Virus record (IMG/VR): IMGVR_UViG_2690316049_000008
Coordinates: 1-19,931 of that record
Source: a virus
Lineage: Duplodnaviria > Heunggongvirae > Uroviricota > Caudoviricetes
DNA: 19,931 bases
Strand: one strand, 5' to 3'
Shown here: positions 1 to 19,559 of the stretch, in pieces
How the letters are laid out: each line of letters begins with the position of its first letter
Numbering within the stretch: the first letter of the stretch is position 1
The notes under the pieces: generated by a model
The model's input: the letters and a program-made list of their open reading frames with translations, nothing else
What the model was told of the DNA's origin: nothing
Database searches by the model: none
Made by a program: the position numbers and the translations under genes

Positions 1-1158
1 ATGCTCACCGTTAAGCAGATTGAAGCAGCAAAGCCGAAAGAAAAACCATACCGCCTACTCGATGGTAATGGCCTGTACCTTTATGTCCCTGTATCAGGGA
101 AAAAGGTATGGCAGCTTCGCTACAAGATTGACGGTAAGGAGAAAATCCTGACCGTCGGAAAATATCCGCTTATGACTTTGCAGGAGGCAAGGGATAAAGC
201 ATGGACCGCGAGGAAAGACATCTCGGTTGGCATCGATCCGGTAAAAGCGAAAAAGGCTTCGTCTAACAACAATTCCTTTAGCGCCATTTACAAGGAATGG
301 TACGAGCACAAGAAGCAAGTCTGGTCAGTAGGCTATGCAAATGAACTTGCAAAAATGTTTGATGACGACATTTTACCTATCATCGGCGGCCTTGAAATTC
401 AGGATATTGAGCCGATGCAACTGCTGGAAGTAATCCGCAGATTTGAAGATCGCGGTGCAATGGAGCGAGCCAACAAAGCCCGCAGAAGATGCGGCGAGGT
501 TTTCCGTTACGCTATTGTCACTGGTAGGGCTAAATATAACCCGGCACCTGACCTTGCTGACGCCATGAAGGGATACCGCAAGAAGAACTTCCCGTTTTTA
601 CCTGCCGACCAGATCCCGGCATTCAACAAAGCACTTGCAACATTTTCAGGAAGTATCGTATCGCTCATTGCGACCAAAGTTTTACGCTACACTGCCCTAA
701 GAACGAAAGAGCTTCGTTCCATGCTATGGAAGAACGTCGATTTTGAAAACAGGATTATCACCATCGACGCCAGTGTGATGAAGGGCCGCAAAATTCATGT
801 GGTCCCGATGTCGGACCAGGTGGTTGAACTTCTCACTACGCTAAGCTCAATCACCAAACCAGTATCAGAGTTTGTTTTTGCCGGGCGCAACGATAAGAAG
901 AAGCCAATCTGCGAGAACGCGGTATTGCTTGTGATCAAACAAATCGGCTATGAGGGTCTGGAAAGCGGTCACGGATTCAGGCATGAATTCAGCACGATTA
1001 TGAACGAGCACGAATGGCCCGCTGATGCTATTGAAGTGCAACTGGCACATGCCAACGGCGGTTCTGTGCGTGGAATTTACAACCATGCTCAGTATCTCGA
1101 CAAACGCAGAGAAATGATGCAGTGGTGGGCAGACTGGCTTGATGGGAAGGTTGATTAA
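1..1158 (+). CDS. int: Tyrosine site-specific integrase, P4/CP4-57-like family
   Basis: 385-aa ORF starting at ATG at position 1. The N-terminus (MLTVKQIEAAKPKEKPYRLLDGNGLYLYV...WQLRYKIDGKEKILTVGKYP) matches the arm-binding domain typical of P4-type integrases. The C-terminus has an H-x-x-R box (GHGFRHEF) and a candidate catalytic Tyr (VRGIYNHAQYL). GC is similar to the phage backbone. Confidence 0.93.
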   Translation: MLTVKQIEAAKPKEKPYRLLDGNGLYLYVPVSGKKVWQLRYKIDGKEKILTVGKYPLMTLQEARDKAWTARKDISVGIDPVKAKKASSNNNSFSAIYKEWYEHKKQVWSVGYANELAKMFDDDILPIIGGLEIQDIEPMQLLEVIRRFEDRGAMERANKARRRCGEVFRYAIVTGRAKYNPAPDLADAMKGYRKKNFPFLPADQIPAFNKALATFSGSIVSLIATKVLRYTALRTKELRSMLWKNVDFENRIITIDASVMKGRKIHVVPMSDQVVELLTTLSSITKPVSEFVFAGRNDKKKPICENAVLLVIKQIGYEGLESGHGFRHEFSTIMNEHEWPADAIEVQLAHANGGSVRGIYNHAQYLDKRREMMQWWADWLDGKVD

Positions 1159-1272
1159 AGAACAATAACAGCGCGTTGCAGCAATTACAGGAAACATCTT
1201 GTTACATACTTGGTTTTATGTCACTAACAAACTAGAGAAATTATGCATGAATAGACATATCGATCGTTATTT

Positions 1273-1288
1273 TTGTTGGTGATATACT
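1273..1288 (+). promoter_or_regulatory. Candidate sigma70 promoter: TTGTTG followed by extended -10 TGaTATACT
   Basis: TTGTTG at 1273-1278 and TGaTATACT at 1280-1288, about 60 bp upstream of the small membrane-protein ORF. Spacing between TTGTTG and the -10 is too short for a canonical -35, so activity would rest on the extended -10. Found by eye only. Confidence 0.2.
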
Positions 1289-1349
1289 TAACTGAATTTT
1301 ATGCACAACCATGTTGCGAATTTACCACATCATTACAAGGCAAACGGAA

Positions 1350-1667
1350 ATGAATAAGGATAAATGCTTAAATATAATTATATTAATAATCATTATAACA
1401 ATAATTGTTATTTCTTTTTATCCTATGTCATCAAGCTCAAAAGGGCATGATACGCAAAGTATTTCAGGTGACAACTTTAAATTAAGATCTTCTTTCTCAA
1501 GAGAATATTCATCATGCATATCAAACCTCAAAATGATAGCGCTAGACTTTGCTGGTCATAACATAGATTTCAACAGCCATAGCCAGTTCATAGCTTCAAG
1601 TGGCGAGGAAAAAATATTAGTAAAATGCACAAAAGATAATAAGTTACTATACATGCAAAATAAATGA
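1350..1667 (+). CDS. Small single-pass membrane or secreted protein of unknown function (~105 aa), cargo gene
   Basis: ORF with stop TGA at 1665-1667. N-terminus MNKDKCLNIIILIIIITIIVISFYP has a positive n-region and a ~20-residue hydrophobic core (signal anchor or signal peptide), followed by a ~80-aa Ser/Asn-rich hydrophilic domain with 3 Cys. Very AT-rich. An alternative in-frame start at 1311 (MLRIY...) would give 118 aa. No strong SD at either start. Followed directly by a strong intrinsic terminator. Confidence 0.5.
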   Translation: MNKDKCLNIIILIIIITIIVISFYPMSSSSKGHDTQSISGDNFKLRSSFSREYSSCISNLKMIALDFAGHNIDFNSHSQFIASSGEEKILVKCTKDNKLLYMQNK

Positions 1668-1673
1668 GAATTT

Positions 1674-1700
1674 CCGCACGCTTATCGCGTGCGGTTTTTT
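1674..1700 (+). terminator. Rho-independent terminator (perfect 8-bp GC-rich stem, 5-nt loop, T6 tract)
   Basis: CCGCACGC (1674-1681), loop TTATC, GCGTGCGG (1687-1694), then TTTTTT (1695-1700), 7 nt after the stop of the small plus-strand ORF. On the minus strand the same hairpin lies just past the stop of the convergent membrane-protein gene but has no U-tract, so it is mainly a plus-strand terminator. Confidence 0.75.
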
Positions 1701-3060
1701 ATTTTTTAGGCAATATATAGTATATTGCCTTATATGAAAAATATACAAATGATACAGTTATTATATTTTTTAAGAAAATAAATAAAAAGAATTCAAGGCT
1801 CTCCCTTGCCATAAAAAATGAAAAAGGCATTGTCATAAGTGCAGCTATTTGTATTACGCCAACTCTCCTCATCAATATGATTTTATCAAGAAATCTAAAA
1901 ACAACGCCTGAGATAACATATGAGCACCAGAAAAAATACTTTCCGAAAATAACAAGCGATGACCCAAGCAAAGTTGATGCCATATTCAATCCATTGCTAA
2001 GACCAAGAGCACTCACGGTAAAGTAATATGAGCTATTCATTGTGACAATTGGTTTGTCAGGCCATATGAATCTTGGGATAAACCCTGAAAATTGAGTAAA
2101 GAAATAATAGATACCACCAACATTGCGATCATTGCTAAAGTATTTAACAGCTATACTCTGATAATTGATAGGAGATACGCTATCAGCTAAATATCTTACT
2201 ATAATGCCAAACAGAGAGCCAGACTCTGAAATATCAACATCTGAGTATCTCACTATAGCCATTATACCAATTAGAATTAAGCACGCAGAGCCTATGCATA
2301 TTAACTTCAATATGCCAATTAGGCCTCTAGAGTGACAAATAAGAGCAACAATAAACATTGCGGAAAACATTACATTTCTTGAGCCACCAATAAGCACATA
2401 ATATGCCATCCCAAATAACAATGACATTATAATTGATTTAACGAACACATACTTATCGTCAGATGTAATTGCATACACTATAACAGCAGAAACAAAAGAT
2501 GACATTATCATTATAATAACACCACTACCAGCATTTCCGCCAAGCTTTAAAGCATAATCATCAGAATTAAAAGATATGCCGTTTATGGCATAAAAAGCCA
2601 TCATCCCAACAAAACTTAAAAACAACGTTGTTCTTACAAATAATTTTGGGCTACCAATAAAATATTTATCAGAAAATGTTATTTTATTTCTTCCTGCCGC
2701 TGTATGAGAGAATACATAAAACAAAACTATACCAATAAACGACAACGTAGACACATCATTTATATATTGATACGGCATATATTCTGCAGAACTAACTTTT
2801 GCCCCAACTCTAAACGGAAGCGATATATACCCAAAAAAATGAGTAAAAACAAGGAATAACATCCCAACAGATTTGAATGACACGCCATGTTTTTTGAATG
2901 ACACGGCACTTAAATATATTAATGTTATGGCATACAACGCAGGTAGCACATAAGTAAAAAATGATTCATAAATATTCATAATATTGTATGTAAAAATGAC
3001 TATTTTTACCCGATCTTTAAAGAAAGTACAGGATGATAGCGCGTTTCTACGCGCCATCAT
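1699..3060 (-). CDS. Polytopic inner-membrane protein (~11-12 predicted TM helices); probable Wzy/WaaL-like O-antigen polymerase or ligase-type surface-polysaccharide protein
   Basis: ORF with stop at 1699-1701. Hydrophobic throughout, with many 18-24-residue hydrophobic segments and one longer, less hydrophobic stretch (roughly residues 275-350) that could be a large periplasmic loop, as in Wzy/WaaL proteins. Extremely AT-rich and Ile/Phe/Tyr/Asn-rich, unlike the neighbouring phage genes. Start is ambiguous: GTG 3066 (overlaps the tailspike stop as GTGA), ATG 3060 or ATG 3057. An AAGGTGA Shine-Dalgarno that contains the tailspike TGA stop sits 2 and 5 nt upstream of the two ATGs, implying translational coupling. 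The functional call is inference from topology, composition and position, not from a recognised motif. Confidence 0.8.
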   Translation of the reverse strand: MMARRNALSSCTFFKDRVKIVIFTYNIMNIYESFFTYVLPALYAITLIYLSAVSFKKHGVSFKSVGMLFLVFTHFFGYISLPFRVGAKVSSAEYMPYQYINDVSTLSFIGIVLFYVFSHTAAGRNKITFSDKYFIGSPKLFVRTTLFLSFVGMMAFYAINGISFNSDDYALKLGGNAGSGVIIMIMSSFVSAVIVYAITSDDKYVFVKSIIMSLLFGMAYYVLIGGSRNVMFSAMFIVALICHSRGLIGILKLICIGSACLILIGIMAIVRYSDVDISESGSLFGIIVRYLADSVSPINYQSIAVKYFSNDRNVGGIYYFFTQFSGFIPRFIWPDKPIVTMNSSYYFTVSALGLSNGLNMASTLLGSSLVIFGKYFFWCSYVISGVVFRFLDKIILMRRVGVIQIAALMTMPFSFFMARESLEFFLFIFLKNIITVSFVYFSYKAIYYILPKK

Positions 3061-3062
3061 AG

Positions 3063-5243
3063 TCACCTTACAACAAATTTGCCATTGCTAATGTCGTTAA
3101 CTAGTGTTGCCACTATGTTAGCAATATCCTTAGTAGATAGGGTGTTTACGTCTCCACCGCGTAACGCACCGGAATTGGTAAATGGATACTGCTGAGGTTG
3201 TGAGCTATTGGCAAACTGGTTGTTAGCCTCATAACGTTTTGTTGGTACAGGGTTGTACCCAATACTACCTGTGGTTGTGTCAGGGGCCACACAGTTCGTA
3301 ATGTTCACTATAGCGTCAGAACCACTACCATTTGTATATATTGGCCTGTTAACTGTCCCGAATGGTTGCACAGCTACCAGCCTGTTAACAATAACACTCT
3401 GTGTGGCTAGTGCTTGTAAATAAGATTCTGCGCTTCCATTGCACCCCCTCAAGTTCACATTATCAACCTCTATGTGGCGGCAGTTAATGATGACGATATA
3501 ATGCCCATTTTCTGTGTTAGGGTAAGCGCCTACTATGCGAACATTTTTTAATGTTAAATCTGTGGTTGGCACCGCAGCAGGCCCACCGTTGAAAACAAAC
3601 CCTTTTGCACCATTTACAAGTGCGTGTATCGTAATGCCGTCAAACTCGATGTCGGCAAGATTAGTCGTGGTATTGGCTGAGTTTCTCAAAAAATAAACAG
3701 CTTCAGCAGAGCAACCTGATATCAAGAAGTTAGAAAAACGCATCCTTGTGTTTTCTACCGGATAGAAGCGGCATAACAAACCCTGCGAGCAGTTACGAAT
3801 AACAACGTTATCGTAGGATACGTCACTAGCTCCTTCAATTGCGACACCTGCGTTCGAACTTTCTACATATAGTCCAGTAACTACTCCATTACGGAAATTC
3901 CCTCGAAGACCGTGGCTTTCACAGTTTTTGATTGTAACGGCGTTTATGTTAACTCTTGTGATAGCTGTGCCATCACCATAACCGTTCATAAGGTCGTCTG
4001 ACTGAATACGCAAACCGTTACCACCAGAGGTATTAATGCTCACATCGTGAATCATAAGATTAAGCGTACGGTTTGGGCGACGTGATGAGAAGAACAAAGA
4101 TGAGGCCCAAGTGTTTCTGCAACGGATATGATGGACGTGCGCCTCTGTGGGGTCATTAACAATGATCGCCATGCCAGTTCGGTTGCTGCCATCTGGATCT
4201 TGAATTTTCCCACGACCACAATCATGTGAGTACAGATTATCGGCAAGAACCCATCTCCCATAATCCATCGTTACGTTGCTATTCCATGCCCCCTGCAATT
4301 CACACCCTGAAAGCTCAAGTGTACCTGCAGATTGCATGGCCAAACCAACCCCTGGGTCAAATGAAGCATTCTGCCGATAAAAATCAAACAAGAAATTACC
4401 GACAATGCGTATATCATATGGAGTATAGTCAAACTCTTGATTTGATTCGTTCCATGTCCGTGGGGATCTGAGCCATAATTGTCTGGAATCTACCGTCACT
4501 TTTGGCAATAACGGCTTTATGAGGATGTCTCCCTGAATATTAAATATACCTTCTACAGTTACGGGAGAGTAAGCGATCCCGATATTTCCAGATAGTGGAA
4601 GTAGTCTACTAAGTTGAGCGTCATTTTGTGCAATTTTCCAACCAGAATTAACCTCGTTAAAAAATGATATTGGGTAAAGTTCAATATTATCATTAATTAC
4701 AGTTGAGTCATAACTGGTAATTGTCAATGGTGATGATAATGGTGTGCTCATCATCATAAGGGCGCCATCAAGCCTAACGAATCTTACACCTTCGGGAATT
4801 AAGTCTCCTATTTTTGCATCAATTCCAATTTTATTAGGATAAACCTCACCACCTAAAAATCCATTCATTCCTCGAAGCCAAGATAGATTTAACATGACTG
4901 ATAACTGATCTGGATCGTACTTCAGCACATTAGGGAAATAGAACTGCTGTGATCCATATGCATCGTACACAGCCATAGAATGCCATTGTACAGTAACGAA
5001 CTTAGCAATCTGTCCGTTATATACAGGGTAGCCAGCAGCGTTAATAATTATTGGTTGCGAAACGGGAATGTGAGAGCCGTCTTCGTTCTCCACATAAACC
5101 TGAATTTGGTTTTCAGGATTTACCGGGTCCGTGTCAATTTTACCGATATAAATTTTGCCATTGGCTACGGCTTTAAAAGAACGAGCCATAGTGAAGAGTT
5201 GCGAAGGCATGCTTACCACAACATTGGCTGTAATGTCTGTCAT
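3063..5243 (-). CDS. Tailspike protein with P22/Sf6-type N-terminal head-binding domain and a divergent C-terminal receptor-binding domain
   Basis: 726-aa ORF. The first ~115 residues ([46 protein letters not shown]...NVLKYDPDQ) match, from memory, the conserved head-binding domain of P22 gp9 and Sf6/HK620 tailspikes. The remainder is Asn/Gly/Ser/Thr-rich with repetitive short beta-strand-like segments, consistent with a parallel beta-helix glycanase domain. GC drops after about nt 4900. SD GGAG lies 9 nt upstream of the ATG. Confidence 0.93.
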
Positions 5244-5262
5244 TTAATTTGCTCCGGACGTA

Positions 5263-5298
5263 GCAATTCCGGACAAGATGCAACCTGTCCGGCATTGC
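5263..5298. promoter_or_regulatory. 13-bp imperfect inverted repeat (RNA hairpin or possible operator) in the 5' leader of the tailspike gene
   Basis: GCAATTCCGGACA (5263-5275), 10-nt spacer, TGTCCGGCATTGC (5286-5298), with one mismatch. A further direct copy of TCCGGAC is at 5253-5259. It lies 20-55 nt upstream of the tailspike ATG, between the last ejection gene and the tailspike. Confidence 0.3.
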
Positions 5299-5338
5299 AC
5301 TAATGTCAGTTATGATTTGTTAATTATGAGGTGAGTCT

Positions 5339-5416
5339 ATGCAAAGAGATCTGTTGAACATTGCGTTCTACATAGTTGGTTTTTGCACGTTCCTGGTGTT
5401 TGCGAAGCTATTCTGA
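5339..5416 (+). CDS. Hypothetical 25-aa hydrophobic peptide (MQRDLLNIAFYIVGFCTFLVFAKLF), antisense to the late operon
   Basis: ATG at 5339 preceded by GAGGTGA (5328-5334) at 4-nt spacing; stop TGA at 5414-5416. Overlaps the 3' end of the gp16-like gene by 9 nt on the opposite strand. The peptide is one predicted TM helix. Too short for the ORF track, no homology evidence, could be chance. Confidence 0.2.
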   Translation: MQRDLLNIAFYIVGFCTFLVFAKLF

Positions 5417-7405
5417 CAACGCATCAGACTTGGCCCCCTGAGTCAGGGCGTTAATGGCCTTTTGCGCCTGCTGCATGGCTTTCTCAAACGCTGTTGATCC
5501 GCGTGGTGTACTTGCCATTCTGAGCATTGCATTTCTGAATGGCTCGCTCTCATAGGCGCGAGTAAGAAGTCCGTAGCTTACTGCTGCGCCAGTTGTTGCA
5601 GGGTTCATTGCCGTCCCATACCCGATAATGAACGGGATGGTTTGCTGCCCTGTTGGTGTTGTTACTGCCGCTTTTGCAGCCTGCTGCGTGGATTGCAGGT
5701 AGTTTTTCAATCCTTTCAGATAAGCAGCGTCCTGCCCCTTAAATGTGATGCCAGTCTGGTTTTGCAGGATGTTAAGCTGCCGAAGGAACTGGTCAGGGGA
5801 TCCTCCAGATTTCTCCATCGCCTTTCCAATAATGCCATTGCGCATTTGCGCCCTGCCAACACGACCAACTGAGTTATACAGAGTCTTAATTTCCGATTTG
5901 TTCTTGCTGAATAGCATGTTGTTGACAACTTCCGGCGTCAGATCGCCTTTCATGAGAACATTCTTCAGCCTGGTATTCTTTAGTTTAGCCGCTTCGTCAG
6001 CGTAGACGGCATTGGCCTGCTGATATTTACGGAGAGTATCGTTGCCAAGATTCTGTCCAATGGCACCATTGATATCGTCGGTCATTGCCTTGTAAACGCG
6101 CTGAATGGCAGCATCGGAACGGTTTGGTAACACTGGTCGCTCACCCTTCACGTCCATTCTGAACTGGCTGCGCAGATCGCTTAATTGCTTCAAATCCAGA
6201 TTTACCGGACCATCAGGACCAGCATTGCGAACAAGCTCATCACGATAGGACTGAAGTTTTGAAATAGTCTCGTTATCAGCTACCTTACCAAGCTTCTGCA
6301 GATTAGATATTTCTGTATCAATCTGCTGAATTGCTCGTGCAGGCTGAATGTTTACTCCTGCCATAGCATTCTGAACCCGCTCCAGTCGATTACCTGCGGC
6401 ACGACGAATTCCTGATGTTTTCGCTTTAAGGCTGTCAATAACAACAGCTGGATCATACTCACCGAATTTATCAGCAAATCTCTGCACCAACTGGCTTCTC
6501 GCTTCCTGTTGCGTTGCTCTCATTCCGCTTGTGCCAGCCAGAGGGATATTTTCTGCTGTAGTCTGCGCCATTTTTCCGACGCGGGAAGTTGGGTGTAACA
6601 GGTCTGTGGTGTGCAGAGGAACACCTTCACGCTCTGCAAATCTGATAGCCTGCTGCGCTTCTGGCGCAATAGCACCACGAACGCCACGATAAGCAGCACC
6701 TAATCCACGTCCGGCAGCGTTAATAGCACCGCCAGCAAGTACACCAACGCCTAAATCGGTGGCGAGTGCTTCCGCATCATCTTTCGCACTATTTGCAGCA
6801 AGTGATCCAACTGCGTTTTCTGCGAGAAGGCGAGTTGCACCCTGAGCAATTCGACCAGCAAGTGTTGGTGCCTGTGTTGCAGCTCTCTCAACTCCAGCAG
6901 GAGTGAGGTAAGGCAATGCTTCAGCAAATACCCTTCCCTCTGTCGTTTGTGGAGTCAGCACGCCTTGCTGAAGGCCAAAGTCCTGCTCTAATCCCTGCGT
7001 TGTTACTCGTGGCGCTGGTTGATATGTCCCATCGCCAATGCCAAGTTTACCGCCAGCCCAAGCCGCCGCGCTTGTTACAGCATCGGCAACTGATGCAGGT
7101 ATGTTTGCCACGTTCACGCCAGCCTGTACCAGTCCGCGACCAGTCTCTTTTACTGCTTCGCCAAGATCAGACATAAATCCACTTTGCTGTGGTTGTTGCT
7201 GTGCTACTGGCTGTTGTGTCTCCACTGGCTGCACAGATGGCAATGGATAGGCAGCATAGAAAGCTTGCTTAGCCTGCTCTGCATTTTCTCCGGCTTGCGG
7301 GGCCACGACTTCATTGAAGTATTGCTCCTGAGCCTGCGCTTTTTGTTCTGGTGCTAACGCCTGATACTGTGGAGAGGCGATAACATCTTTCCATGCTTTA
7401 GCCAT
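5408..7405 (-). CDS. Ejection (injection) protein, P22 gp16-like
   Basis: 665-aa ORF, third of three consecutive ejection-protein genes in the P22 order gp7-gp20-gp16, directly upstream of the tailspike. Ala/Gln/Gly-rich low-complexity composition typical of these proteins. ATG at 7405 overlaps the upstream stop as TAATG; SD GGGGTGA. Confidence 0.8.
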   Translation of the reverse strand: MAKAWKDVIASPQYQALAPEQKAQAQEQYFNEVVAPQAGENAEQAKQAFYAAYPLPSVQPVETQQPVAQQQPQQSGFMSDLGEAVKETGRGLVQAGVNVANIPASVADAVTSAAAWAGGKLGIGDGTYQPAPRVTTQGLEQDFGLQQGVLTPQTTEGRVFAEALPYLTPAGVERAATQAPTLAGRIAQGATRLLAENAVGSLAANSAKDDAEALATDLGVGVLAGGAINAAGRGLGAAYRGVRGAIAPEAQQAIRFAEREGVPLHTTDLLHPTSRVGKMAQTTAENIPLAGTSGMRATQQEARSQLVQRFADKFGEYDPAVVIDSLKAKTSGIRRAAGNRLERVQNAMAGVNIQPARAIQQIDTEISNLQKLGKVADNETISKLQSYRDELVRNAGPDGPVNLDLKQLSDLRSQFRMDVKGERPVLPNRSDAAIQRVYKAMTDDINGAIGQNLGNDTLRKYQQANAVYADEAAKLKNTRLKNVLMKGDLTPEVVNNMLFSKNKSEIKTLYNSVGRVGRAQMRNGIIGKAMEKSGGSPDQFLRQLNILQNQTGITFKGQDAAYLKGLKNYLQSTQQAAKAAVTTPTGQQTIPFIIGYGTAMNPATTGAAVSYGLLTRAYESEPFRNAMLRMASTPRGSTAFEKAMQQAQKAINALTQGAKSDALSE

Positions 7406-8799
7406 TAATCACCCCATAGTGAAGAAAAGTTACTGCTGGCTGCTGGTTGTGATACCTGTGCAGGTTGAGATTGCTGCCGCTGAGATTTACCAACATTAAC
7501 GTTATATTGTTGGTTGTAATTGTTGGTGTATTCCTGAATCTCACGAATCGACTGCTGCATAGCCTCCGGGCTTGAATAGTCAACCTGCGGCATCCCCTGA
7601 AAATACATCTTCGCTTCTGCAACGGTGTTAATACCACTGGCCCCCATGTCCCTTGCTGCCGCCACACCCTGATTCTGCATTCTGCCCTGAATACGTTGTG
7701 CTGAGTTATATAACTGGCGCTGCTCTTTTCCTGTTAATCGGCTGCGAACATCAGCACCAATTGCCGGGTTACCTGCGCCGCCGGTCATTCCTGTCATGAA
7801 ATCGAGAGCAGAAGCGTCTGCATTTGCGATCGCGTCGATATCCTTCTTCATGGCATAGTTTTGTGCTGATGCAGACGATGTTGCAGGCGCTGCGATTGAA
7901 CTGGCAGGAACGCGAACCATATTCCCCTCGTTGTCGATGCCTTCGTAGAACGCATTTGCCCCAGCGCCGTGAAGTTTCCCGCCAACCGTTACAGTTCTGC
8001 CATCTGATAACTGAACTGTACGCTCATCATTCCCAGCGGTTCCTCTTGTTGACGCTCGCTGCATTGCCAAATCCTGCCCGCGTCGCGCAGTAGAAGCAGA
8101 TAAATCCTGACCGCGCATCGTGATGTTCTGACCTCGTGCTGTTAGCGCCTCTCCAGCCTGATTGCTGCGGATTGTCTCTGCAAGTTTTCCGCGATCAATC
8201 TCACGCCCAACGATTCTGTCTTGCGCCTGAAAATATTGTTCTGGACCAAGTGCAGCCATTCCAAGGTGATCAACAAACTCTGTGAAACCTTGTGGATTTT
8301 GCTGATACATTTTCGCCACATCCAGAGGGTCTACTCCGGCACGAGTAAGCTCAGATGAGTTGTTCTGCAACCATGACATCATGGCTTCTGGAGATGAAGC
8401 TGCCAGTCTGGCACTTGCTGCCAGTGTGCCGACAGTGGAACGCTGGTCTTCATCGACAAATTTCATGCCGTTTCTTACAGCGTCAAACTGCTCAGGATAC
8501 TGTGATGCCAGTTTTCGCATTGCATCGCGGTCACCAGATGTATATGCATCAGCATAAGCCTGCTGAAACTCTTGCTGTCGCTTCTGCTGATCCATCTGCT
8601 TATACATATCCATGACAGATGAAATGCCCTGCAAAGCCTGCAAGCCAACGTTATTACGTCCTGAACGCTCCATCTCGTTATTCTGTCGAATGTATGCAAG
8701 CGTGGCGTCTGCATCACTTGCTCTTGGAGCGTTGGAGTTCATGCCGCCTAACCCGGCAAGAAGCGCGCCTGAATTACCAGCCTGTTGCCATGTAGCCAA
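7405..8799 (-). CDS. Ejection (injection) protein, P22 gp20-like
   Basis: 464-aa ORF in the position and size class of P22 gp20. The first codon at 8799 is TTG, preceded by a strong SD GGAGGTG at ~5-nt spacing immediately after the upstream stop, so a TTG start is likely. Confidence 0.8.
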
Positions 8800-8811
8800 G
8801 AGACACCTCCA

Positions 8812-9471
8812 TTAAAACAGTGAACCAAGAAGGCCGACGCCAGCACCAATTGCTGTACCCCAACCAGGCATGATTGCAGTACCCATCGCAGCACCTGCCG
8901 CAGCTCCACCGAGAGCACTCTGAAAACCAGACGGTTTATTGGCATTTGCTGCCGCTGCCGCCGCCTGCTGTTGATACAATTGGCTGACGTTGTTAGCGTA
9001 GTTCTGCCCGGCGTTTGCCTGACCTGTAAGAGCACCAAGGCCAATGTTTGCCAGATTGTTGTAGTTGTTCATCTGACCTGACAGCCAGTTTTGACCGAGT
9101 GTAGGTGCGATTGCTGCTAACTGGTTTCCTGTTGCTGTAGAGCCTAATCCACCCGTTGCCTCTGCTGCAGCAAGACTCTGATAGCGCGCCTGCCCTGCAA
9201 GGTCTTTATACTGCTGGGAGTTGTAATACTGGTTAAGCGCCTGACCTTGCCCCTGAAGAGAGGAAAGATTCTGCAACTGTGATACGTACTGCTGAGCGAG
9301 TGGCGTGAACGGTGCAAGGTTCTGCATGTTTGTCTGCCACATTTCACGCTGCAATTCGATACCCTTTTCAGTTGCGCGTGCCTGGGCTTTAGAGCCGGAG
9401 TCGCTGCCGCCTTTCATGTACCCATTCATGGGAAGCAATTTATTCTTGAAGCTTTCGCTAAGTACCAACAT
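8812..9471 (-). CDS. Ejection (injection) protein, P22 gp7-like
   Basis: 219-aa ORF with a Gly/Ala/Gln-rich C-terminus ending in a hydrophobic Gly-rich tail, and a KGGSDSGSKAQARATE motif resembling P22 gp7. ATG at 9471 is preceded by GAGGAG at 7-nt spacing. Overlaps the gp14-like gene by 14 nt. Confidence 0.8.
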   Translation of the reverse strand: MLVLSESFKNKLLPMNGYMKGGSDSGSKAQARATEKGIELQREMWQTNMQNLAPFTPLAQQYVSQLQNLSSLQGQGQALNQYYNSQQYKDLAGQARYQSLAAAEATGGLGSTATGNQLAAIAPTLGQNWLSGQMNNYNNLANIGLGALTGQANAGQNYANNVSQLYQQQAAAAAANANKPSGFQSALGGAAAGAAMGTAIMPGWGTAIGAGVGLLGSLF

Positions 9472-9925
9472 TTAATAGCTCCTCATATTTCGAACGAGGT
9501 AATTGATAGAGGGTGATTCCTACCGGTTTTCCGTTACTCATGTACGCATCATCAAGGTGACCAACACGGGTAGCGCCAAGCAAACGGATAATTGCCCGTC
9601 CATATTTTGTGGTGTCAGGAACCATAGTGATGCTGTTAAGGAATGGTGAGTTTTCGAGAAGCCACTTGCAGAATAATCGATGCCCTTGCAGTGCATATTC
9701 ACCACGGAATCCGGGGTCGTACACCGCATGGCATTCAACAACGCTATGCCAGAAGTTACGCACTTCATGAACGCCAGCCAGCACTAATCCTTCGTAGATG
9801 CCGAGATATACCGCATCAGGCTTGATGTAGTATTTATCTCCACTGTCTACGATATTTCCCGTGTTTGCCGGGTTGTTGAGGAATTCTGCAAGCTTCACCG
9901 GATTATCGATGAGCTTTATTTCCAT
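9458..9925 (-). CDS. P22 gp14-like protein (role annotated only by position in the late operon)
   Basis: ORF in the gp14 position between tail needle and ejection genes. The track starts at GTG 9928, but ATG 9925 has the better SD spacing (GGAG 5 nt upstream) and overlaps the tail-needle TGA stop as TGATG. Confidence 0.75.
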   Translation of the reverse strand: MEIKLIDNPVKLAEFLNNPANTGNIVDSGDKYYIKPDAVYLGIYEGLVLAGVHEVRNFWHSVVECHAVYDPGFRGEYALQGHRLFCKWLLENSPFLNSITMVPDTTKYGRAIIRLLGATRVGHLDDAYMSNGKPVGITLYQLPRSKYEELLNVGT

Positions 9926-10878
9926 CACTGCTCCGCAATGATTTTGATGGTTGTGGCAGTAAACGCCGCACCATTAGACTGAATGGTTAACGTACTGCCA
10001 TTTGTGGCAAGAAAGCCGTCTTTATCCACGCTGAAGAACGTAGCTAACAGGATGTTGTCGGTTGTTGTCGCCGAGTTGCGACTGCTTACCAGTGTGTCAG
10101 GAACAGAACCGGAAAAAGTTAGCTGCATTGACCTGTTGGCGGTTCCGCTGGGCCACGTCCCAACAATCGACAGCTTGAAGAACAAGGTTTTGTTCTCGTT
10201 GAACACAACCATCTTGTTGTTAACGGTGTCGAAGAATGGTGCCAACTCACCGGATGACGGCGTGAGCGTTTTCAGCAGGCTAACAAGGTTGGTAGGCGAT
10301 GTCGGAATTGTTACCGATACCCCTGAGTAAACAACCTCTGATTTCTTGCGCGTGGTGGCATACTCAAGCGCAGATATTCTTGTTGAGTGATCACCAACTG
10401 TGCTTTGTAGCGTCGAAATACTTCCCTCTGCCGCTGTGAGCCTGGTATCAAGTGCGTCGATATCGGTTGTATTCTGAGTTATGCGCGCATCATGGTTTGC
10501 TAACTCAGATTCATTGGCAGCAATTCGCGTCTCGTGATCAGCCAGCTCTGTTTCAGCAGCCGTAATCCTTGTTTCATGATCTGCAAGAGTGCTTTCCGCT
10601 GCTGCAATTCTATGTTCATGATTGATGAGAGTTGCTTCAGCAGCTTCAATTCTGGATTCATGGTCTGCAAGGGTGACATCCTGCTCATCGTTCCTGACCT
10701 GTGCATCATAAGCGCCCTGTCCGGCCTCGTTGGCTTTGTTAGCCACGTTACCAACATCAGTGCCCTGTGCGATAACGTAAAGCAGATACGACTGCGAGAA
10801 GATATTGCGTGGAAGGACTGATGTGTCGAGCCGTGTAGCCTGAATGATTACCGGCACATTGAGATTCGAATCAGCCAT
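9925..10878 (-). CDS. Tail needle protein (P22 gp26-like) with trimeric coiled-coil repeats and a C-terminal knob domain
   Basis: 317-aa ORF. The N-terminal ~65 residues ([43 protein letters not shown]...) match the conserved gp26 N-terminal hub-binding region. The centre holds 14-residue (double-heptad) repeats of the [11 protein letters not shown] type. The C-terminal ~140 residues are a Ser/Thr-rich globular extension absent from P22 gp26, consistent with an Sf6-type knob. ATG overlaps the gp10-like stop as TAATG. Confidence 0.88.
10459..10677 (-). repeat. Imperfect tandem 42-bp (14-codon) repeats, about 5 copies, inside the tail-needle gene
   Basis: Protein-level repeats [14 protein letters not shown] / [14 protein letters not shown] / [14 protein letters not shown] / [14 protein letters not shown] / [14 protein letters not shown] are mirrored by ~42-nt DNA repeats; 10546-10587 was checked to encode [14 protein letters not shown]. 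Short ORFs on both strands in the ORF track here are frame shadows of this repeat. Confidence 0.7.
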
Positions 10879-12296
10879 TACTCAATCCTTATCTGGCAGC
10901 CTGACAGAGTGACAGGTGACTTCGTGATAACGCGCAATTTGAAACCGACATTTTTCCTGATGCGCCCTACTCGCTTCCACAAAACGCGTTTGTCGTAAAC
11001 GAACGGTTCATTCTGCTCAATCATCTGCTCACGCCCGTAATTGATGCCGTCAGTGGTTGCAGAGAGAAAAAGGCGGTCAGCATACTGCGCAACTCCAGTT
11101 GAAGATTCAACTTCAAGGTCGAAAACTCTGGCGTTATCTGCTTTGAACAACGGAGTAAACAGCAGGTGTTCCTGCTGCTTGTCGTACTGACTGCTGATAT
11201 CGAACTGCAATTTCCCGGTCACCGATTCCAGCTTATCGCCGCACGTTATCTGATTTCCTTCGTAAATGAAGTCGATAGCGCGGTACACATCGTCATACAA
11301 GCCTGTTTTCAACACACACCATTGCGGACCATTGGCGCTTGAAGATGCGTCGTACACGAGGACGTGGCGCGGAAGGTGGATAATCAGCAACTCATGAGCA
11401 TCAAATCGTAGAGACTCCATCACGCCATCAGCCAGTTCATCAGCAGTGTAGGAGCGGAGGATTTTCTCAATGCTCGCGCTGGCGATTGGTGATACCTGAC
11501 CGGAGCCGATGATGTAAACAGACGGCGCACCTGTTGCCGGATTGCTGATGAACGCATACGAATCAGCAAACGGCGTTTTGCAGTAGGTTCCGGCGATTCC
11601 TTTTTGCACCATCAACGATGGCTGGGCGACATACAAAGCGGCACCAACAGTGGTTGCACCAGTCAGGGAAAAATATTCAATCGTCGATGAACCAAAGCAG
11701 ACGATGAAGTCTCGCCATGTTCCGATGCCGATGATGCCGTCAGGCTGCGATTCTGCGCGATATTGTGCGCTGTATCGGTCAGGATGTGATTCGTCTTCAA
11801 GGTCAGTGATAAACCATGAATCAGTGCCGTCTTTTGACCACGCATAACGCCCACGTAAGCGCGTAATGTCGCGTACTGAGCCTAACTCATACTGCGTGAA
11901 TCCGCTGTCTGTAGGCCAGTTTGAGACGGTTTTAACCGTGCCATCATAGCGATACTCGACCAGTTTCCCGTTAACGCCTACCGCCTGTGATGTCCGACCA
12001 TGCGCCATTGATACACGACCACTTCCGGCGACGTCACCGACTTCACTTTCGCCTTTGTACAGCTTGCCACCACACACGCGATAAACAGCATTCTGCGCCA
12101 TGTTGTACTCGACGCCACGCGATACGCCGTTCACATCAGAACGTTTGGCAATGCCCGGGAATGAGCGAAGATATCCGCTGCTGTTAAGGATTTCTTTTGG
12201 TGTAGCCAACATATTCACTGGCAGATAGTCGATATAGTCGGCGTTTCGGAAGTCTTTGCCGACACCTTTCATAAGCGGAAGTTGCTGAATCGGCAT
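10878..12296 (-). CDS. Tail hub / head-completion protein, P22 gp10-like
   Basis: 472-aa ORF, matching the length I recall for P22 gp10 and sitting in its position downstream of the gp4-like gene. ATG at 12296 with SD AGGTGA 5 nt upstream. Confidence 0.85.
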
Positions 12297-12355
12297 TTAT
12301 TCACCTATGCGTTTGGGATATCGCCATCAATCAGAGGGAGATCGCCTGGATAATA

Positions 12356-12787
12356 TCAGTCAGATGTAAACACGTCATATTTATTACCCTGTCCTACAGG
12401 AAAATCTCCACGTCGTCGCATTGAAGGAACAACCAGAGTGTCGGTCATCAAGGCATCATATGAGCGTTGGGCGTTACTGAGAACTTGCGGAGTTGGTTCA
12501 AGGCTGTAATCAGATAGCATTCTCAGCAATAACTGATAGCCTACTGCGTGTTTGTATTTTCTTGGAAGACCTGACTCATCATCTGGTAATGGCTGATCAT
12601 CTCCAGTTGCGAAAGCGTAACCAATGTCGCCGGGGTTAATCATCCACTCGGACATCATATCTTCCAGATCATTTACACCATCTTCAATTGATTGCGGCTC
12701 AACATCAGTCAGCGATGCATTAGAAGCAATAGCAAACTTACGAAGCGCAAAAAGGACGATCTCACCCTTTGTCAGTACTGTTGCCAT
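12356..12787 (-). CDS. Head-to-tail adaptor protein, P22 gp4-like
   Basis: 143-aa ORF whose N-terminus (MATVLTKGEIVLFALRKFAIASNASLTDVEPQS) aligns with what I recall of P22 gp4. It is the first gene after the coat gene and small ORF, as expected. Confidence 0.82.
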   Translation of the reverse strand: MATVLTKGEIVLFALRKFAIASNASLTDVEPQSIEDGVNDLEDMMSEWMINPGDIGYAFATGDDQPLPDDESGLPRKYKHAVGYQLLLRMLSDYSLEPTPQVLSNAQRSYDALMTDTLVVPSMRRRGDFPVGQGNKYDVFTSD

Positions 12788-12947
12788 TGTCTGCCGCCTT
12801 ACGACCTCGCTTACTGGTCGGTTTCAATTCATCAACTGAGGCAACAAAGCCCAACCTTTCGAAAAACTGGAAGTCTTTTTCTGCGATAACGGCCTGTACA
12901 TGCCCGGATTCGTTATCTGCGGCAAGGAATACACTCATCCGATCCAT
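12762..12947 (-). CDS. Small hypothetical protein (61 aa) between coat and adaptor genes
   Basis: ATG at 12947 preceded by a good SD (AAGGAA, 5-nt spacing). Overlaps the start of the gp4-like gene by 26 nt in another frame. No recognisable motif. Confidence 0.45.
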   Translation of the reverse strand: MDRMSVFLAADNESGHVQAVIAEKDFQFFERLGFVASVDELKPTSKRGRKAADNGNSTDKG

Positions 12948-12958
12948 ATTGTTTCCTT

Positions 12959-12986
12959 AAAACATAAAAGGGGCGTAAGCCCCTTG
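12959..12986 (-). terminator. Intrinsic terminator-like hairpin immediately after the coat gene (probably partial or leaky)
   Basis: On the minus strand, right after the coat TAA stop: AAGGGGC, loop TTAC, GCCCCTT, then TTATGTTTT (7-bp stem; stem and loop at 12968-12985). It is followed by the SD of the next small ORF, so some readthrough into downstream late genes is expected. Confidence 0.6.
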
Positions 12987-12989
12987 TTA

Positions 12990-14261
12990 TTACGGATTAC
13001 CGAAGAACTGACCGCCCATGTGAGGGTTAAAGCACACATATGCAGGCAGTAAGTCGAAGCGCATTTTTTGCACGTTGGCATCGCCATCTGCGTATTTATG
13101 TACGCGGATGGAGAAACCTTCATATGTTGCAACAGCAGAATCAATACTGTGCAGTTTCGGCAGTGGGATAGAGCCAAGTCCACAGAAGAACTTGTTATAG
13201 AACAGGTTTGGCTTCATTGTCTGGCTAGCAGTGCCTACTACAGATACGGCATCGCCTGCCTCTACCTGACGACTTACAGAGTTGTACTGCGGGTTTGTAG
13301 TGTCATAAATCGGAACACCAGAAAGCGTAACCGTCACATCGCCACCGCTGTCTGAATTAGCATCAGCAGTAACCGTTGCAGTGAAGCTAATTGGTGTGGT
13401 TCCGTTATACAACGCCTGTTTGGTCTGCTGTTGCAGCCAGTAGGTATTGGTGAATTTGACCTGATCACCAGCTTTCAGAAAACCTGTAACGCTGGCTGTC
13501 GCTCCGGTCAATGTTACAGTGAACTGGTATGAGTCTTTAACTGCGTTATAGGTAACAGTTGGCTGTGTTTTGACTGTCAGTGTTCCGCCAAATGCCCCCT
13601 GCGTACGAGAGGCAAGCCCATTAGACATCAGTGCGCGAATGCCGCCAAAATTGGTTGGGATCTGTGCGTTCTCCCATGCAGTACGAACCAATTGATCTGA
13701 AGCATGCAAACCAGTCTGCGCATCAGCAAGTCGCTGTGCAGACCATGGATCCATTACAGCATAGTTTTCACCTTCATTAACGCCGAGGTCTTTCAGGAAA
13801 GATGCCGTCTGCGCAACATCAGACCATTTGGTGATTGGAGTATTGGGGCTACCAAGTGACAACGCACCGTTATTCATCATGAAGTGAGCAAGCTCTGTTT
13901 CAAGGTCGGTAACGATTCGCTGGCGAACCGGCGCGAGAATTCCTTCCAGCTGGTTAAGCTTGATCGCTTCCTCCAGTTGCTGATATTCAACAGCAACAGT
14001 GATGTAGTTACCTACACGCCCCGTAGCTTTACCTGAGATCAGGTTGTTTTTATTTTTCCCTGAAATATCACCAGTGGGAGTACGGAGGGATGAGAATTGA
14101 TGCGGACGTTTAAAGCTAACGCTATCGCCAGTGCTGGAGTTGATTTCACCTGCCAGCAACTGACGGTCTACGGTTTTCGCCAGAACTAAATCTGACATAA
14201 AACCCGGAAGGAATTTTTTCAGAACGATTTGACTGACGTTACTGTCGAGATTGTTAGGCAT
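12990..14261 (-). CDS. Major capsid (coat) protein, P22 gp5-like
   Basis: 423-aa ORF directly after the scaffold gene and before a terminator hairpin, the classic P22-like order portal-scaffold-coat. Strong SD (AAGGAA, 7-nt spacing). Confidence 0.88.
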   Translation of the reverse strand: MPNNLDSNVSQIVLKKFLPGFMSDLVLAKTVDRQLLAGEINSSTGDSVSFKRPHQFSSLRTPTGDISGKNKNNLISGKATGRVGNYITVAVEYQQLEEAIKLNQLEGILAPVRQRIVTDLETELAHFMMNNGALSLGSPNTPITKWSDVAQTASFLKDLGVNEGENYAVMDPWSAQRLADAQTGLHASDQLVRTAWENAQIPTNFGGIRALMSNGLASRTQGAFGGTLTVKTQPTVTYNAVKDSYQFTVTLTGATASVTGFLKAGDQVKFTNTYWLQQQTKQALYNGTTPISFTATVTADANSDSGGDVTVTLSGVPIYDTTNPQYNSVSRQVEAGDAVSVVGTASQTMKPNLFYNKFFCGLGSIPLPKLHSIDSAVATYEGFSIRVHKYADGDANVQKMRFDLLPAYVCFNPHMGGQFFGNP

Positions 14262-14272
14262 TTATCTTTTCC

Positions 14273-15157
14273 TTATTCGATTTTTGCGCCGGGGCATAAT
14301 TTGTTGAATTCGTCTTGTTTCGCATCAGCACCGCCACCACGTACTTCCGGCTCTGGCTTGATGGCTTTCTTTGGTTTTGGAGCAAGGCTTACCTGTTTGC
14401 TAATCTGCCCCAAGAGGAATGCTGCGCGAATTGGATCTGTCTCAGCGGCTACACGCTGGCGTAATTGCTGGCTCTTGCCTAAGCCATAGGCGAGTAGTTC
14501 AGAGCCTTCGTCTGCACAGTGAATGATGATTTCCTGCTGAATTGGTGGTAGCTCACTAAGAACAATGGCTTCCATTTCCTGATAATCTTTCACAGGAAGT
14601 TTGGCTGCCCGTTGTTTATGCGCTTCTACCCTTTGCTGGAAACGCTGCTGGTATTCCTGTTGCTGACGTAGTTTTTGTTGCTGCTGCTGTTCGACACGGC
14701 CTTTTTTCTCATGCCAATCAGTCAATGCCTGTTCAAACGCCTGTTCGTCATAATCACACGACTCAAGAGTCGGTTTTGGTGGAATAGCGTCTGGTTGTGG
14801 TTGCTGATGTTCCGCTGGCTTGGCTAATGCTTCCTCAAGCTGGCGGCGCAACTCACGGTTTTCTTTCTGTGTTTCTTTGAAGCCTTTGCGAAGATCTTTC
14901 ACCCATTGCGGCGCAGGTTGCCCGTCAATGTGATCATCATCGTCAGCGTTAAGCTGAATTTCTTCATCACCAATACGCAAGGCGTAATCTTCTGGTGTCT
15001 CTTCGGTTTTTTCAGGCTCAGTTGCCACCTCTTTACCGTTGTCATCCTGGCTTTCATTCTCAGGCTGTGACTCTGTTTGGATGATGGTTTCTTCTGCATT
15101 TTCCTGTGTTTCAGACAGGTCAATAACCTGACCGTCGATGATCAGTTCGTTTTCCAT
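14273..15157 (-). CDS. Scaffolding protein, P22 gp8-like
   Basis: 294-aa ORF between portal and coat. Highly acidic N-terminal half, Gln/Arg-rich predicted helical middle (QQQQQKLRQQQEYQQRFQQRVEAHKQR) and a basic C-terminus, as in phage scaffolds. SD AGGAG 6 nt upstream of the ATG. Confidence 0.82.
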   Translation of the reverse strand: MENELIIDGQVIDLSETQENAEETIIQTESQPENESQDDNGKEVATEPEKTEETPEDYALRIGDEEIQLNADDDDHIDGQPAPQWVKDLRKGFKETQKENRELRRQLEEALAKPAEHQQPQPDAIPPKPTLESCDYDEQAFEQALTDWHEKKGRVEQQQQQKLRQQQEYQQRFQQRVEAHKQRAAKLPVKDYQEMEAIVLSELPPIQQEIIIHCADEGSELLAYGLGKSQQLRQRVAAETDPIRAAFLLGQISKQVSLAPKPKKAIKPEPEVRGGGADAKQDEFNKLCPGAKIE

Positions 15158-15170
15158 TGATTACTCCTGG

Positions 15171-17297: not shown

Positions 17298-17299
17298 GT

Positions 17300-18712
17300 T
17301 TACCAACCGGAGGATGAGGGAACGTATATTTCTGTTTCTTCGCGGACCAATGCCGGGCAATGCATACACATCATCAGCGCATCAGCCAGGTTAGGAGATG
17401 AAATACCGAGCTTCTGCTTCATTTCGACCTTAGTCATAAGCTCCAGCTTCCCGTTATTATTGAATTTGCGCTGAATCTGCGTCAGTTCTGCAAACAGCTT
17501 CTCCAGCATCTTCTCGCCTATCACTTCTTTGTCGAAACTCAGCATGTCGTCGGGGTCTGCATACTCACCGTGGACAACCGCCCGATATGTCAGATACAGC
17601 CTGTCAGCCAGCGCGTAATAGAATTGCGCTCGCTTATTGCGGAATACATCGCCAATAGTGCGAACGTTGTCGCCCTGTACGACTTCATCAGCCCATGCTC
17701 CGGCCTGATACGGAGCATCTTCATCGAATGGCGATTCGCTGCCCTTGAACATCGTGGCGGTGATTTTCTTGCCGGAGAACGCTTCCGTTGTCTGTCTGCG
17801 TAGCCCGGCACCAACACCATCACCATCCCACAGGTAATGGTCAGCGCCGTCTTCAATCGCCAGCGAAGTAGCCCAGTCAGCACCCTCGTTGATGTCCATC
17901 AGCAGACCTTCGGCAATGCGCTTAACTACCGAACCGTGACGCGATGCATAACCTTTAGCATCTGGCCCTGTATCTGATGGGTCATGCGCAGAGACAACAG
18001 CGCCTTTCGCTTTCCATCCGAGTTTCTTGTGCGCATCGGTTGCGGCTTCAAGCCATTCACGTTTGATGATTGCCATATCACTTGCGCTTACTGGCTCACC
18101 AAGCCAGATGTGACGATACAGTGTCGGGTTTCTGCGTTTGCACTCTTCCATCTCCAGACGGAGAACTTCAGGAAAATGCGGGTTGTCGGTGTAGTTCACC
18201 GTCAGCAGGCAAATATCATCGGGAGGATTTACAACGAATCGCTGATAGGTATCGTCGAGTATGTTCTTCGGGTTAAAGCTCACCCATATTTCGGAAAACG
18301 GCTTGCGGATGGTTGGAATCAGGATATCCCACGATTCCTTTGTTACCGCTTCCGCTTCTTCCACCCAGCAAATATCAATGCCTTCTAGCGATTTAATCTT
18401 CGTCGGGTTGTTTTTGATGCCGTAGAACATGAATTCAGCATTCGTTCCGAGATGACGAATCATTGAACGCTGAATTTCAAACTCAGACGAATACCCTTCC
18501 CGCTCTATGGTGTCTTCAAGCAACCGGATTACCGAATCGCTGATACTGTTTTGCAGTTCACGAGCGCAGAGAATACGCACTGGCTGACGACGCGCCGCTT
18601 CAACAAGCAGCCTAGCAATTGCCCATGACTTACCGCTACCTCGACCGCCTTTGGCGACTTTGTAGCGATGCGCCTCAATGAACGGTTCAAAGATAGGATT
18701 AATCGAGGTCAT
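17300..18712 (-). CDS. terL: Terminase large subunit
   Basis: 470-aa ORF with an N-terminal Walker A P-loop (KGGRGSGKS) and Walker B-like hydrophobic-DE (ICWVEEAEA), followed by a C-terminal acidic nuclease-type region. ATG overlaps the terS stop as ATGA. Closely resembles the Sf6-type large terminase as I recall it. Confidence 0.93.
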   Translation of the reverse strand: MTSINPIFEPFIEAHRYKVAKGGRGSGKSWAIARLLVEAARRQPVRILCARELQNSISDSVIRLLEDTIEREGYSSEFEIQRSMIRHLGTNAEFMFYGIKNNPTKIKSLEGIDICWVEEAEAVTKESWDILIPTIRKPFSEIWVSFNPKNILDDTYQRFVVNPPDDICLLTVNYTDNPHFPEVLRLEMEECKRRNPTLYRHIWLGEPVSASDMAIIKREWLEAATDAHKKLGWKAKGAVVSAHDPSDTGPDAKGYASRHGSVVKRIAEGLLMDINEGADWATSLAIEDGADHYLWDGDGVGAGLRRQTTEAFSGKKITATMFKGSESPFDEDAPYQAGAWADEVVQGDNVRTIGDVFRNKRAQFYYALADRLYLTYRAVVHGEYADPDDMLSFDKEVIGEKMLEKLFAELTQIQRKFNNNGKLELMTKVEMKQKLGISSPNLADALMMCMHCPALVREETEIYVPSSSGW

Positions 18713-19134: not shown

Positions 19135-19213
19135 ATTGATTATTTCCCTTCTGCTTGCTTATCCCATTCATCGCGGAATTTGGATGGGTTGTCGAAACCT
19201 TGAGTTGCCATGT

Positions 19214-19456: not shown

Positions 19457-19475
19457 TGTTGGCTCCGTTTATCCG

Positions 19476-19503: not shown

Positions 19504-19559
19504 GTGTAGGGTATAAGCCATTATCAAAGCCACTCAGTAAGGAATGGCTTTTGTAATAA

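Follow-up and report, generated by a model that had tools for sequence, protein, structure and literature searches.

A conserved 25-codon gene convergent with the ejection-protein gene of Sf6-like prophages is a candidate superinfection-exclusion gene

The SieA protein of phage P22 is an inner-membrane superinfection-exclusion protein that blocks DNA injection and leaves prophage induction unaffected (Leavitt et al. 2024, PMC10883804). Escape from SieA in P22 requires the gp16 substitutions P546S and G532W together with changes in gp20 (PMC10883804). A second exclusion activity has been assigned to STnc6030 of the Salmonella prophage BTP1, a 786-nt 'antisense RNA' (D23580 403942–404727) that is well expressed in lysogens and visible in both RNA-seq and Northern blots (Owen et al. 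2020, Microb Genom, PMC7067206). When expressed from a plasmid, STnc6030 gave total exclusion of BTP1 and none of P22, and it did not reduce induction of the BTP1 prophage (PMC7067206). Phages that escaped it carried clustered single-nucleotide polymorphisms (SNPs) at 404041–404078, all four of which are missense changes in the injection protein STMMW_03891 (PMC7067206). STnc6030 was classed as non-coding because its authors considered only open reading frames (ORFs) longer than 60 aa (PMC7067206), and a 2025 review still lists it as an antisense RNA (PMC12197685). Here we describe a 25-codon ORF, the micro-ORF, at positions 5339–5416 of a 19,931-nt stretch of viral DNA (IMG/VR record IMGVR_UViG_2690316049_000008, positions 1 to 19,931; hereafter, the window). 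The window is an Sf6-like (Lederbergvirus, P22-like) E. coli prophage whose late operon lies on the minus strand. The micro-ORF is conserved among relatives that include BTP1, and it may encode a membrane peptide that acts in exclusion of this kind.

The micro-ORF lies on the plus strand, from ATG 5339–5341 to TGA 5414–5416, and encodes a peptide of 25 aa (MQRDLLNIAFYIVGFCTFLVFAKLF) that is identical in phage Sf6. The first-pass annotation of the window, made from its letters alone, had reported an ORF with an upstream Shine–Dalgarno (SD) sequence here, and our analysis returned the same coordinates and peptide. A short polar N-terminus (MQRD) is followed by a hydrophobic core of approximately 17–19 residues and by Lys23. 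The mean Kyte–Doolittle hydropathy of residues 5–21 is 2.26, which agrees with the earlier description of a small hydrophobic single-helix peptide encoded opposite the late operon. Most of the micro-ORF lies in the 164-nt spacer (5244–5407) between the tailspike gene (3063–5243, minus strand) and the gene for the gp16-like DNA-ejection protein (5408–7405, minus strand; 665 aa, Sf6 gene 13 type). The overlap with the 3′ end of the gp16-like gene that had been described does exist, but it is just 9 nt long and the ORF is mostly intergenic. The two genes meet tail to tail at 5408–5416 on both strands, both stop codons included, with micro-ORF codons L24, F25 and stop opposite the last two sense codons and the stop of gp16 (S-E-TAG). 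Because it is located in the spacer and overlaps by only these 9 nt, the micro-ORF is hardly antisense to gp16. The SD-like sequence GAGGTGAG (5328–5335, plus strand) contains the core GAGGT, which ends 6 nt before the ATG. A strong ribosome-binding site had been claimed; it is present in the window but not conserved in the closest relatives, as G5331 is specific to the window and is replaced by T in Sf6 and by A in 683R2 and most same-context relatives (GAGTTGAG / GAGATGAG).

To gather relatives without reference to the micro-ORF itself, we searched with the last 180 residues of gp16, in both the window and the BTP1 versions, which gave 80 + 80 loci from IMG/VR and 10 from species-representative genomes. 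An intact homologous micro-ORF was present in 166 of the 167 loci with enough sequence, and its length was exactly 25 codons in 81 loci and 23 codons in 85. These intact loci hold 56 distinct peptides and 78 distinct DNA sequences. Their hosts are Escherichia, Shigella, Salmonella, Citrobacter, Kluyvera, Erwinia, Atlantibacter and Pseudescherichia, the last five of which supply a divergent set; phages Sf6, L, BTP1, IME10, Gally and VSe13 also carry the micro-ORF. The sole exception is a Yersinia relative (L094) with a different gp16 C-terminus, in which an HkcB-like membrane-protein ORF takes its place just downstream of gp16.

We compared this pattern with what a chance open frame in a conserved non-coding spacer would give. 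Seen in a single sequence, a 25-codon ORF is unremarkable and not beyond chance, and the strong SD is not kept in the nearest relatives; the conservation, by contrast, is beyond chance. Only the reported frame (+0) is open in all 78 distinct sequences, whereas the other five are closed in many or all. Synonymous changes were counted with the start codon and the gp16-overlapping part left out. Of 63 distinct variants in the 23-codon type, 33 were synonymous (52%, against 22–29% expected; p = 8e-8 to 6e-5 according to the transition bias), with no excess in the wrong frames +1 and +2 (17% and 10%); by codon position 1/2/3, variants of this type numbered 21/8/47. The 25-codon type, to which the window belongs, had 35% synonymous variants against 19–23% expected (p = 0.004–0.04). 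The ATG is conserved, and an in-frame indel of 9 nt separates the two length types. SD matches of at least 4 nt were found in 42 of 51 unique upstream sequences, against 15% at random positions, and matches of at least 5 nt in 33 of 51, against 2.8%. A check of conservation in related phages had been proposed for the ORF and its SD; the ORF is kept and the SD is enriched overall, although it is poor in the closest relatives. Because 166 of 167 loci are intact, openness and synonymous excess are specific to one frame, the indel is in frame and SD matches are enriched, we regard the micro-ORF as a coding gene and not a product of chance. That it is a protein-coding gene under purifying selection is very probable on these sequence comparisons; a chance frame, which had been put forward as an equal possibility, is highly improbable and we reject it.

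The peptides share the pattern M-x-R-D-x-L-N-[FIL]-A-F-[YL]-I-F-G-..., with conserved positions M1, R3, D4, N7, A9, F10, I12, F13, G14, V20, L24 and F25, the terminal L-F being additionally constrained by the gp16 overlap. Asn7, Ala9 and Gly14, conserved within the hydrophobic stretch, would suit helix–helix packing. A 25-codon variant of the Salmonella phage VSe13 type, MQRDTINLVFYIFRFFTFMMFTKLF, occurs at L005 2503–2580 and in three IMG/VR loci, and its ORF is still open. It may be a form of altered specificity or a decaying one.

In an alignment of 35 unique gp16–tailspike spacers, GTTATAAT / GTTATGAT / GTTATAGT were conserved at 90% or above. In the tailspike-adjacent context GTTATAAT lies 22 nt upstream of the ATG. 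The version in the window, TATGAT (5311–5316, plus strand), is a candidate −10 hexamer that would place the transcript start near 5323. A search for plus-strand promoters, which had been recommended for this locus, thus yielded a conserved −10; there was no acceptable −35 at 16–18 nt from it and no full sigma-70 promoter. Because the −10 has no −35 and consensus scanners call no promoter, we infer promoter use in the window only from the hexamer, which may nevertheless have promoter activity. A weak plus-strand promoter match (TATACA-17-AATAAT) is also found at 5020–5048, inside the tailspike gene; the number of such weak matches in the region is no higher than in shuffled sequence. Hairpins after the micro-ORF stop (TTCGCTC-CCT-GAGCGAA in BTP1, and one in the window) were considered as a conserved terminator and set aside, as their registers differ relative to the gp16 codons.

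To relate the micro-ORF to STnc6030, we mapped the STnc6030 coordinates onto the BTP1 genome (L098) through the supplementary gene table of PMC7067206 (offset 390239). STnc6030 corresponds to L098 13703–14488 on the minus strand, and the cloning primers match both ends. The window and BTP1 have the same gene order, and their spacers and micro-ORFs align. The BTP1 homologue has 23 codons and encodes MERDLLNFVFLIFGLVVGKLLFA (L098 14011–14082, minus strand); it occupies nt 407–478 of the cloned STnc6030 fragment and is preceded by its own SD, GGAGGG, with a TATAAT box upstream. The mapped start of STnc6030 (D23580 404727) lies approximately 310 nt inside the tailspike gene and 406 nt upstream of the ORF, and a promoter-like sequence, TTGAAT-17-TTCAAT (L098 ~14495–14523, minus strand), is found just upstream of it. 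The BTP1 Northern bands of approximately 500 nt fit a transcript that runs from the mapped 5′ end and stops just past the ORF, and equally a proximal start with a longer 3′ end.

The gp16-like protein of the window shares 74% identity with BTP1 STMMW_03891 and 37% with P22 gp16. The STnc6030 escape region corresponds to residues 583–595 of BTP1 gp16 (ILGIGTVTNPALV), within the most hydrophobic 19-residue interval of that protein. An alignment of the three gp16 proteins placed P22 P546 at BTP1 V589, inside this escape cluster, and P22 G532 at BTP1 G576, seven residues upstream of it; the SieA-escape sites and the STnc6030-escape sites of BTP1 are in the homologous C-terminal region of gp16. The counterpart of the cluster in the window is gp16 residues 593–605 (IIGYGTAMNPATT, nt 5591–5629, minus strand), which may form a contact or specificity segment.

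We propose a gp16-directed membrane exclusion protein because the ORF is under selection, its homologue lies within the BTP1 clone, the escape changes are missense and fall at SieA-escape sites, and induction is unaffected. We prefer, by a modest degree, the view that the product of the micro-ORF is an inner-membrane micro-protein, expressed by the prophage, that prevents DNA entry where this depends on gp16 and acts like SieA without being its homologue. We judge it an even chance that superinfection exclusion of the STnc6030 type is brought about by the 23–25-residue peptide and not by the antisense RNA. An earlier suggestion of a 'small membrane modulator' came close to this proposal. Transcription of the micro-ORF would oppose that of the late operon; it would start at a weak spacer promoter or, in other phages, reach the ORF by read-through from an upstream accessory gene. 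In the window the peptide would then be translated and inserted into the inner membrane as a single helix. There it would block DNA delivery by superinfecting phages with a cognate (Sf6/L/BTP1-type) gp16 ejection protein, disabling the gp16 part of the P22-like DNA-ejection conduit. It would probably act on the C-terminal region of gp16, around residues 586–605, presumably by direct contact. Through the overlapping stop codons, the peptide gene and its target's gene would be bound together, such that exclusion specificity and target type are inherited together.

The published account of STnc6030 offers a different explanation, in which a cis-antisense RNA base-pairs with the gene 16 3′ end of the late mRNA and destabilizes the message, the ORF being a passenger or its translation serving simply to stabilize the RNA. 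The transcript has been seen by RNA-seq and Northern blot, the clone excludes BTP1 and the escape SNPs are in the complementary part of gene 16 (PMC7067206). By geometry, moreover, any micro-ORF transcript that reads on is antisense to gene 16. Yet a synonymous excess confined to one frame, indels that keep the frame and intactness in 166 of 167 loci would not be seen in a passenger ORF. Single mismatches rarely abolish pairing over approximately 300 nt of perfect complementarity, which makes escape by one SNP awkward for an RNA mechanism. All four escape SNPs are missense and lie where the P22 SieA-escape changes map. The part of STnc6030 that is antisense to the tailspike gene is missing from loci in which an Arc/Mnt-like repressor gene or a lipoprotein gene lies upstream, while the ORF is retained there. 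The RNA is also not unusually structured and has no Rfam match, and induction of the prophage is unaffected although it, too, depends on the late mRNA (PMC7067206). We therefore consider the antisense RNA a rather unlikely effector.

Several observations count against exclusion by a membrane peptide. The escape SNPs of BTP1 do fall in sequence to which STnc6030 is complementary, and sequencing of the escape phages was confined to the STnc6030 region (PMC7067206). P22 gp16 residues 476–609 are described as dispensable for membrane association in vitro in work cited in PMC10883804, so that contact between a membrane-embedded peptide and this segment of gp16 is uncertain. The peptide type and the gp16 escape segment correlate only as two major types, and because the two are physically linked this correlation is confounded. 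For the 25-codon type, that of the window, the coding signal is less strong, and the 25-codon peptide varies much at its N- and C-terminal polar positions, while the adjacent gp16 C-terminus is nearly invariant. In the variant MQRDTINLVFYIFRFFTFMMFTKLF, Arg replaces the otherwise invariant Gly14 and there are several further changes. The SD is weak in the closest relatives of the window, and the promoter evidence is a −10 match that lacks a −35. When the window and BTP1 were scanned for consensus sigma-70 promoters and for terminators, neither the spacer nor the sequence following the ORF yielded a full promoter or a terminator. Finally, the counterpart of the distal BTP1 promoter in the window (4898–4926, plus strand) reads CTGATA-17-TTCAGC and lacks the final T of the −10; because the hexamers are not conserved there, that promoter is probably non-functional in the window.

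A toxic function was a further suggestion of the first-pass annotation. Type I toxin peptides such as Ibs, TisB, ShoB and Ldr are hydrophobic single-helix peptides of 18–35 aa, which the micro-ORF product resembles in size and hydrophobicity, and its ORF, like theirs, overlaps a convergent transcript. The convergent late mRNA could in principle act as the antisense partner of a type I toxin or abortive-infection peptide that depolarizes the membrane when de-repressed. Such toxins, however, have a dedicated antitoxin small RNA and a structured leader. An Rfam scan of 4800–6000 at E <= 1 gave no match, and scans found no promoter for a short antisense RNA at the micro-ORF, so that no dedicated antitoxin RNA came to light. 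The putative mRNA (5323–5480) was no more stable than shuffled sequences (fold z = 0.51), and the SD would not be sequestered if the proximal promoter is used, because the leader is short and unstructured. In addition, cells that over-expressed the BTP1 fragment with the homologue from PLlacO-1 (pPL-STnc6030) still gave lawns, on which P22 plated normally, the fragment is expressed constitutively in lysogens, and escape maps to the ejection protein (PMC7067206). On these grounds we discount a type I toxin, which is very unlikely.

The surroundings of the micro-ORF also bear on its function. It abuts the gp16-like gene in the accessory slot between gene 16 and the tailspike gene, a cargo-hotspot position as had been noted. 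It is invariably the final gene ahead of the gp16 stop and, lying on the other strand, converges with gene 16. Every 25-codon locus has a 9-nt overlap, and the 23-codon loci, with a single exception, have one of 12 nt. The tailspike start lies approximately 90 nt from the micro-ORF in 59 loci (the arrangement of the window, Sf6 and BTP1); a same-strand Arc/Mnt-like repressor gene lies upstream in 38 loci (IME10 type) and a lipoprotein gene in about 31 (Gally and VSe13 type), and there are several rarer arrangements. Between contexts, homology breaks at or just upstream of the SD or start codon, the usual gene-boundary signature of mosaic phage genomes. Given the overlapping stop codons, the peptide gene and the gp16 C-terminus are therefore inherited as one recombination module. 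This obligatory tail-to-tail linkage to one gp16 C-terminal type is left unexplained if the peptide modulates a host membrane protein, in the manner of MgrB, AcrZ or KdpF, for lysogenic conversion or fitness and has nothing to do with exclusion. Such a role would suit a peptide that is conserved, has one helix and is apparently expressed from the prophage strand, in a slot for accessory genes. The only functional data for the locus, however, concern phage exclusion with gp16 escape mutants (PMC7067206), and we consider a host modulator improbable.

Other genes of this slot were recorded along the way. In phages of the Gally, VSe13 and 720R6 type, a gene for a lipoprotein of 161–178 aa (lipobox LAGC) directly precedes the micro-ORF on the same strand (L004 1966–2481, L005 1996–2481 and L006 1996–2481, plus strand in locus orientation). 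An Atlantibacter prophage (L092) instead has a gene for a different, secreted protein of 128 aa before the micro-ORF. The lipoproteins and the 128-aa protein are possibly further exclusion or conversion proteins. Whichever gp16 type was examined, the gene that directly converges with gene 16 codes for a membrane protein: sieA in P22 (L007 3337–3831) and hkcB in HK620 (L182 3383–3712) and CUS-3 (L184 1204–1501) are examples. This suggests a general slot for a gene-16-linked membrane protein, occupied by SieA, HkcB or the 23/25-aa peptide.

The remaining genes of the window were identified, like the tailspike gene, by Pfam and BLAST. In the late operon, next to the gp16-like gene, are those for gp20 (7405–8799) and gp7 (8812–9471), both on the minus strand. 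On the other side of the tailspike gene lies a gene for a WzyE-like O-antigen polymerase (1699–3066, minus strand), whose start overlaps the tailspike gene end by 4 nt (3063–3066), and which is for this reason apparently co-transcribed with the late operon. Beyond it are a 118-aa ORF without a Pfam match (1311–1667) and the integrase gene (1–1158), both on the plus strand. The spacer between the gp16 stop and the tailspike start also contains a conserved hairpin on the minus (late-mRNA) strand, CCGGACA-10 nt-TGTCCGG (5269–5292). Among the 35 unique spacers, RNAalifold gave −12.2 on the late-mRNA strand against −1.3 on the opposite strand, and G-U pairs were strand-specific, with a few compensatory changes. 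As it has no U-run, the hairpin is no classic terminator; it might act in mRNA processing or stability, or in tailspike translation.

We then searched for earlier descriptions of the peptide. Pfam, NCBIfam, PHROGs and PADLOC profile searches with it gave no hits at E <= 10, and an exact look-up of 16 variants, including forms extended in frame upstream, found none of them among 15 billion predicted proteins. The micro-ORF is unannotated in the records that we inspected, namely those of Sf6, 683R2, IME10, Gally, VSe13, 720R6, L, ST64T, MG40, BTP1 and RefSeq E. coli, and a search of the literature library by peptide sequence found no paper that prints it. One known phage ORF of the same length, P22 orf25 (L185 21330–21407, between rha and orf80; MSGLDNGLYHRLDIIRFIPSMWGGG, 25 aa), was considered and dismissed, being at a different locus and unrelated in sequence. 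Among 5,426 complete E. coli genomes, 333 (~6%) carry the 25-codon type; E. coli W has it at 95.5% identity.

These findings add an unannotated gene to the model phages Sf6, L, BTP1, ST64T and MG40, and to the prophages of approximately 6% of complete E. coli genomes. They also give STnc6030, published as a non-coding RNA defence, a reinterpretation that can be tested cheaply. If the peptide is the effector, it would be a minimal tool for studying the way in which gp16 of P22-like phages makes the conduit for DNA delivery complete at the inner membrane, and it would extend micro-proteins to phage–phage exclusion. It would then be, to our knowledge, the smallest exclusion protein known. More generally, long 'antisense RNAs' of prophages deserve screening for ORFs well below 60 codons.

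How does the peptide compare with described exclusion systems? Unlike the STnc6030 locus, the window combines the 25-codon peptide type with another gp16 segment. HkcB of HK620 and CUS-3 resembles the micro-ORF product in that its gene is directly convergent with gene 16, of another gp16 type, and in having an N-terminal transmembrane helix; it differs in its 109 aa and its long coiled-coil tail, is unlike the peptide in sequence and is a hypothetical protein. HK97 gp15, as summarized from Cumby et al. 2012 in PMC3594210, is a moron-encoded inner-membrane exclusion protein that blocks genome injection. According to that summary, it is, like the proposed peptide, small, expressed from the prophage and embedded in an operon of virion genes, with a specificity set by the tail or ejection apparatus of the incoming phage. 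It is also unlike the peptide: it is larger and belongs to an unrelated, YebO-like family without sequence similarity to the peptide, its gene does not overlap that of its target, and its phage is a siphovirus dependent on a tape-measure protein.

SieA offers a further comparison. Its gene and the micro-ORF share the slot between genes 16 and 9, are convergent with gene 16 and lie on the prophage-expressed strand. P22 has sieA in exactly the place of the micro-ORF and no small ORF there, and P22 sieA is downstream of mnt-type genes, as the micro-ORF is in its Arc/Mnt context. The two proteins are nevertheless distinct. SieA has 162–164 aa and three predicted transmembrane helices (PMC10883804), against 23–25 aa and one helix for the peptide; its family was defined here by a length of ~160–200 aa and three or four transmembrane helices. 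The cytoplasmic SieA motif FxRYPxEAxxFNK (PMC10883804) is absent from the peptide, BLASTP of the peptide against P22 SieA returned no alignment, and the sieA motif was absent within 1.2 kb of the micro-ORF in all 166 loci. A resemblance of the peptide to the last SieA helix (7/21 identities by eye) was put down to hydrophobic composition. Specificity differs as well, as SieA excludes hybrids that carry Sf6 ejection proteins, whereas STnc6030 does not exclude P22. On our proposal, the peptide would act as a minimal analogue of P22 SieA and share its genomic slot. The peptide itself is new; the kind of system to which we assign it, superinfection exclusion by a membrane protein at the DNA-entry step, is already known.

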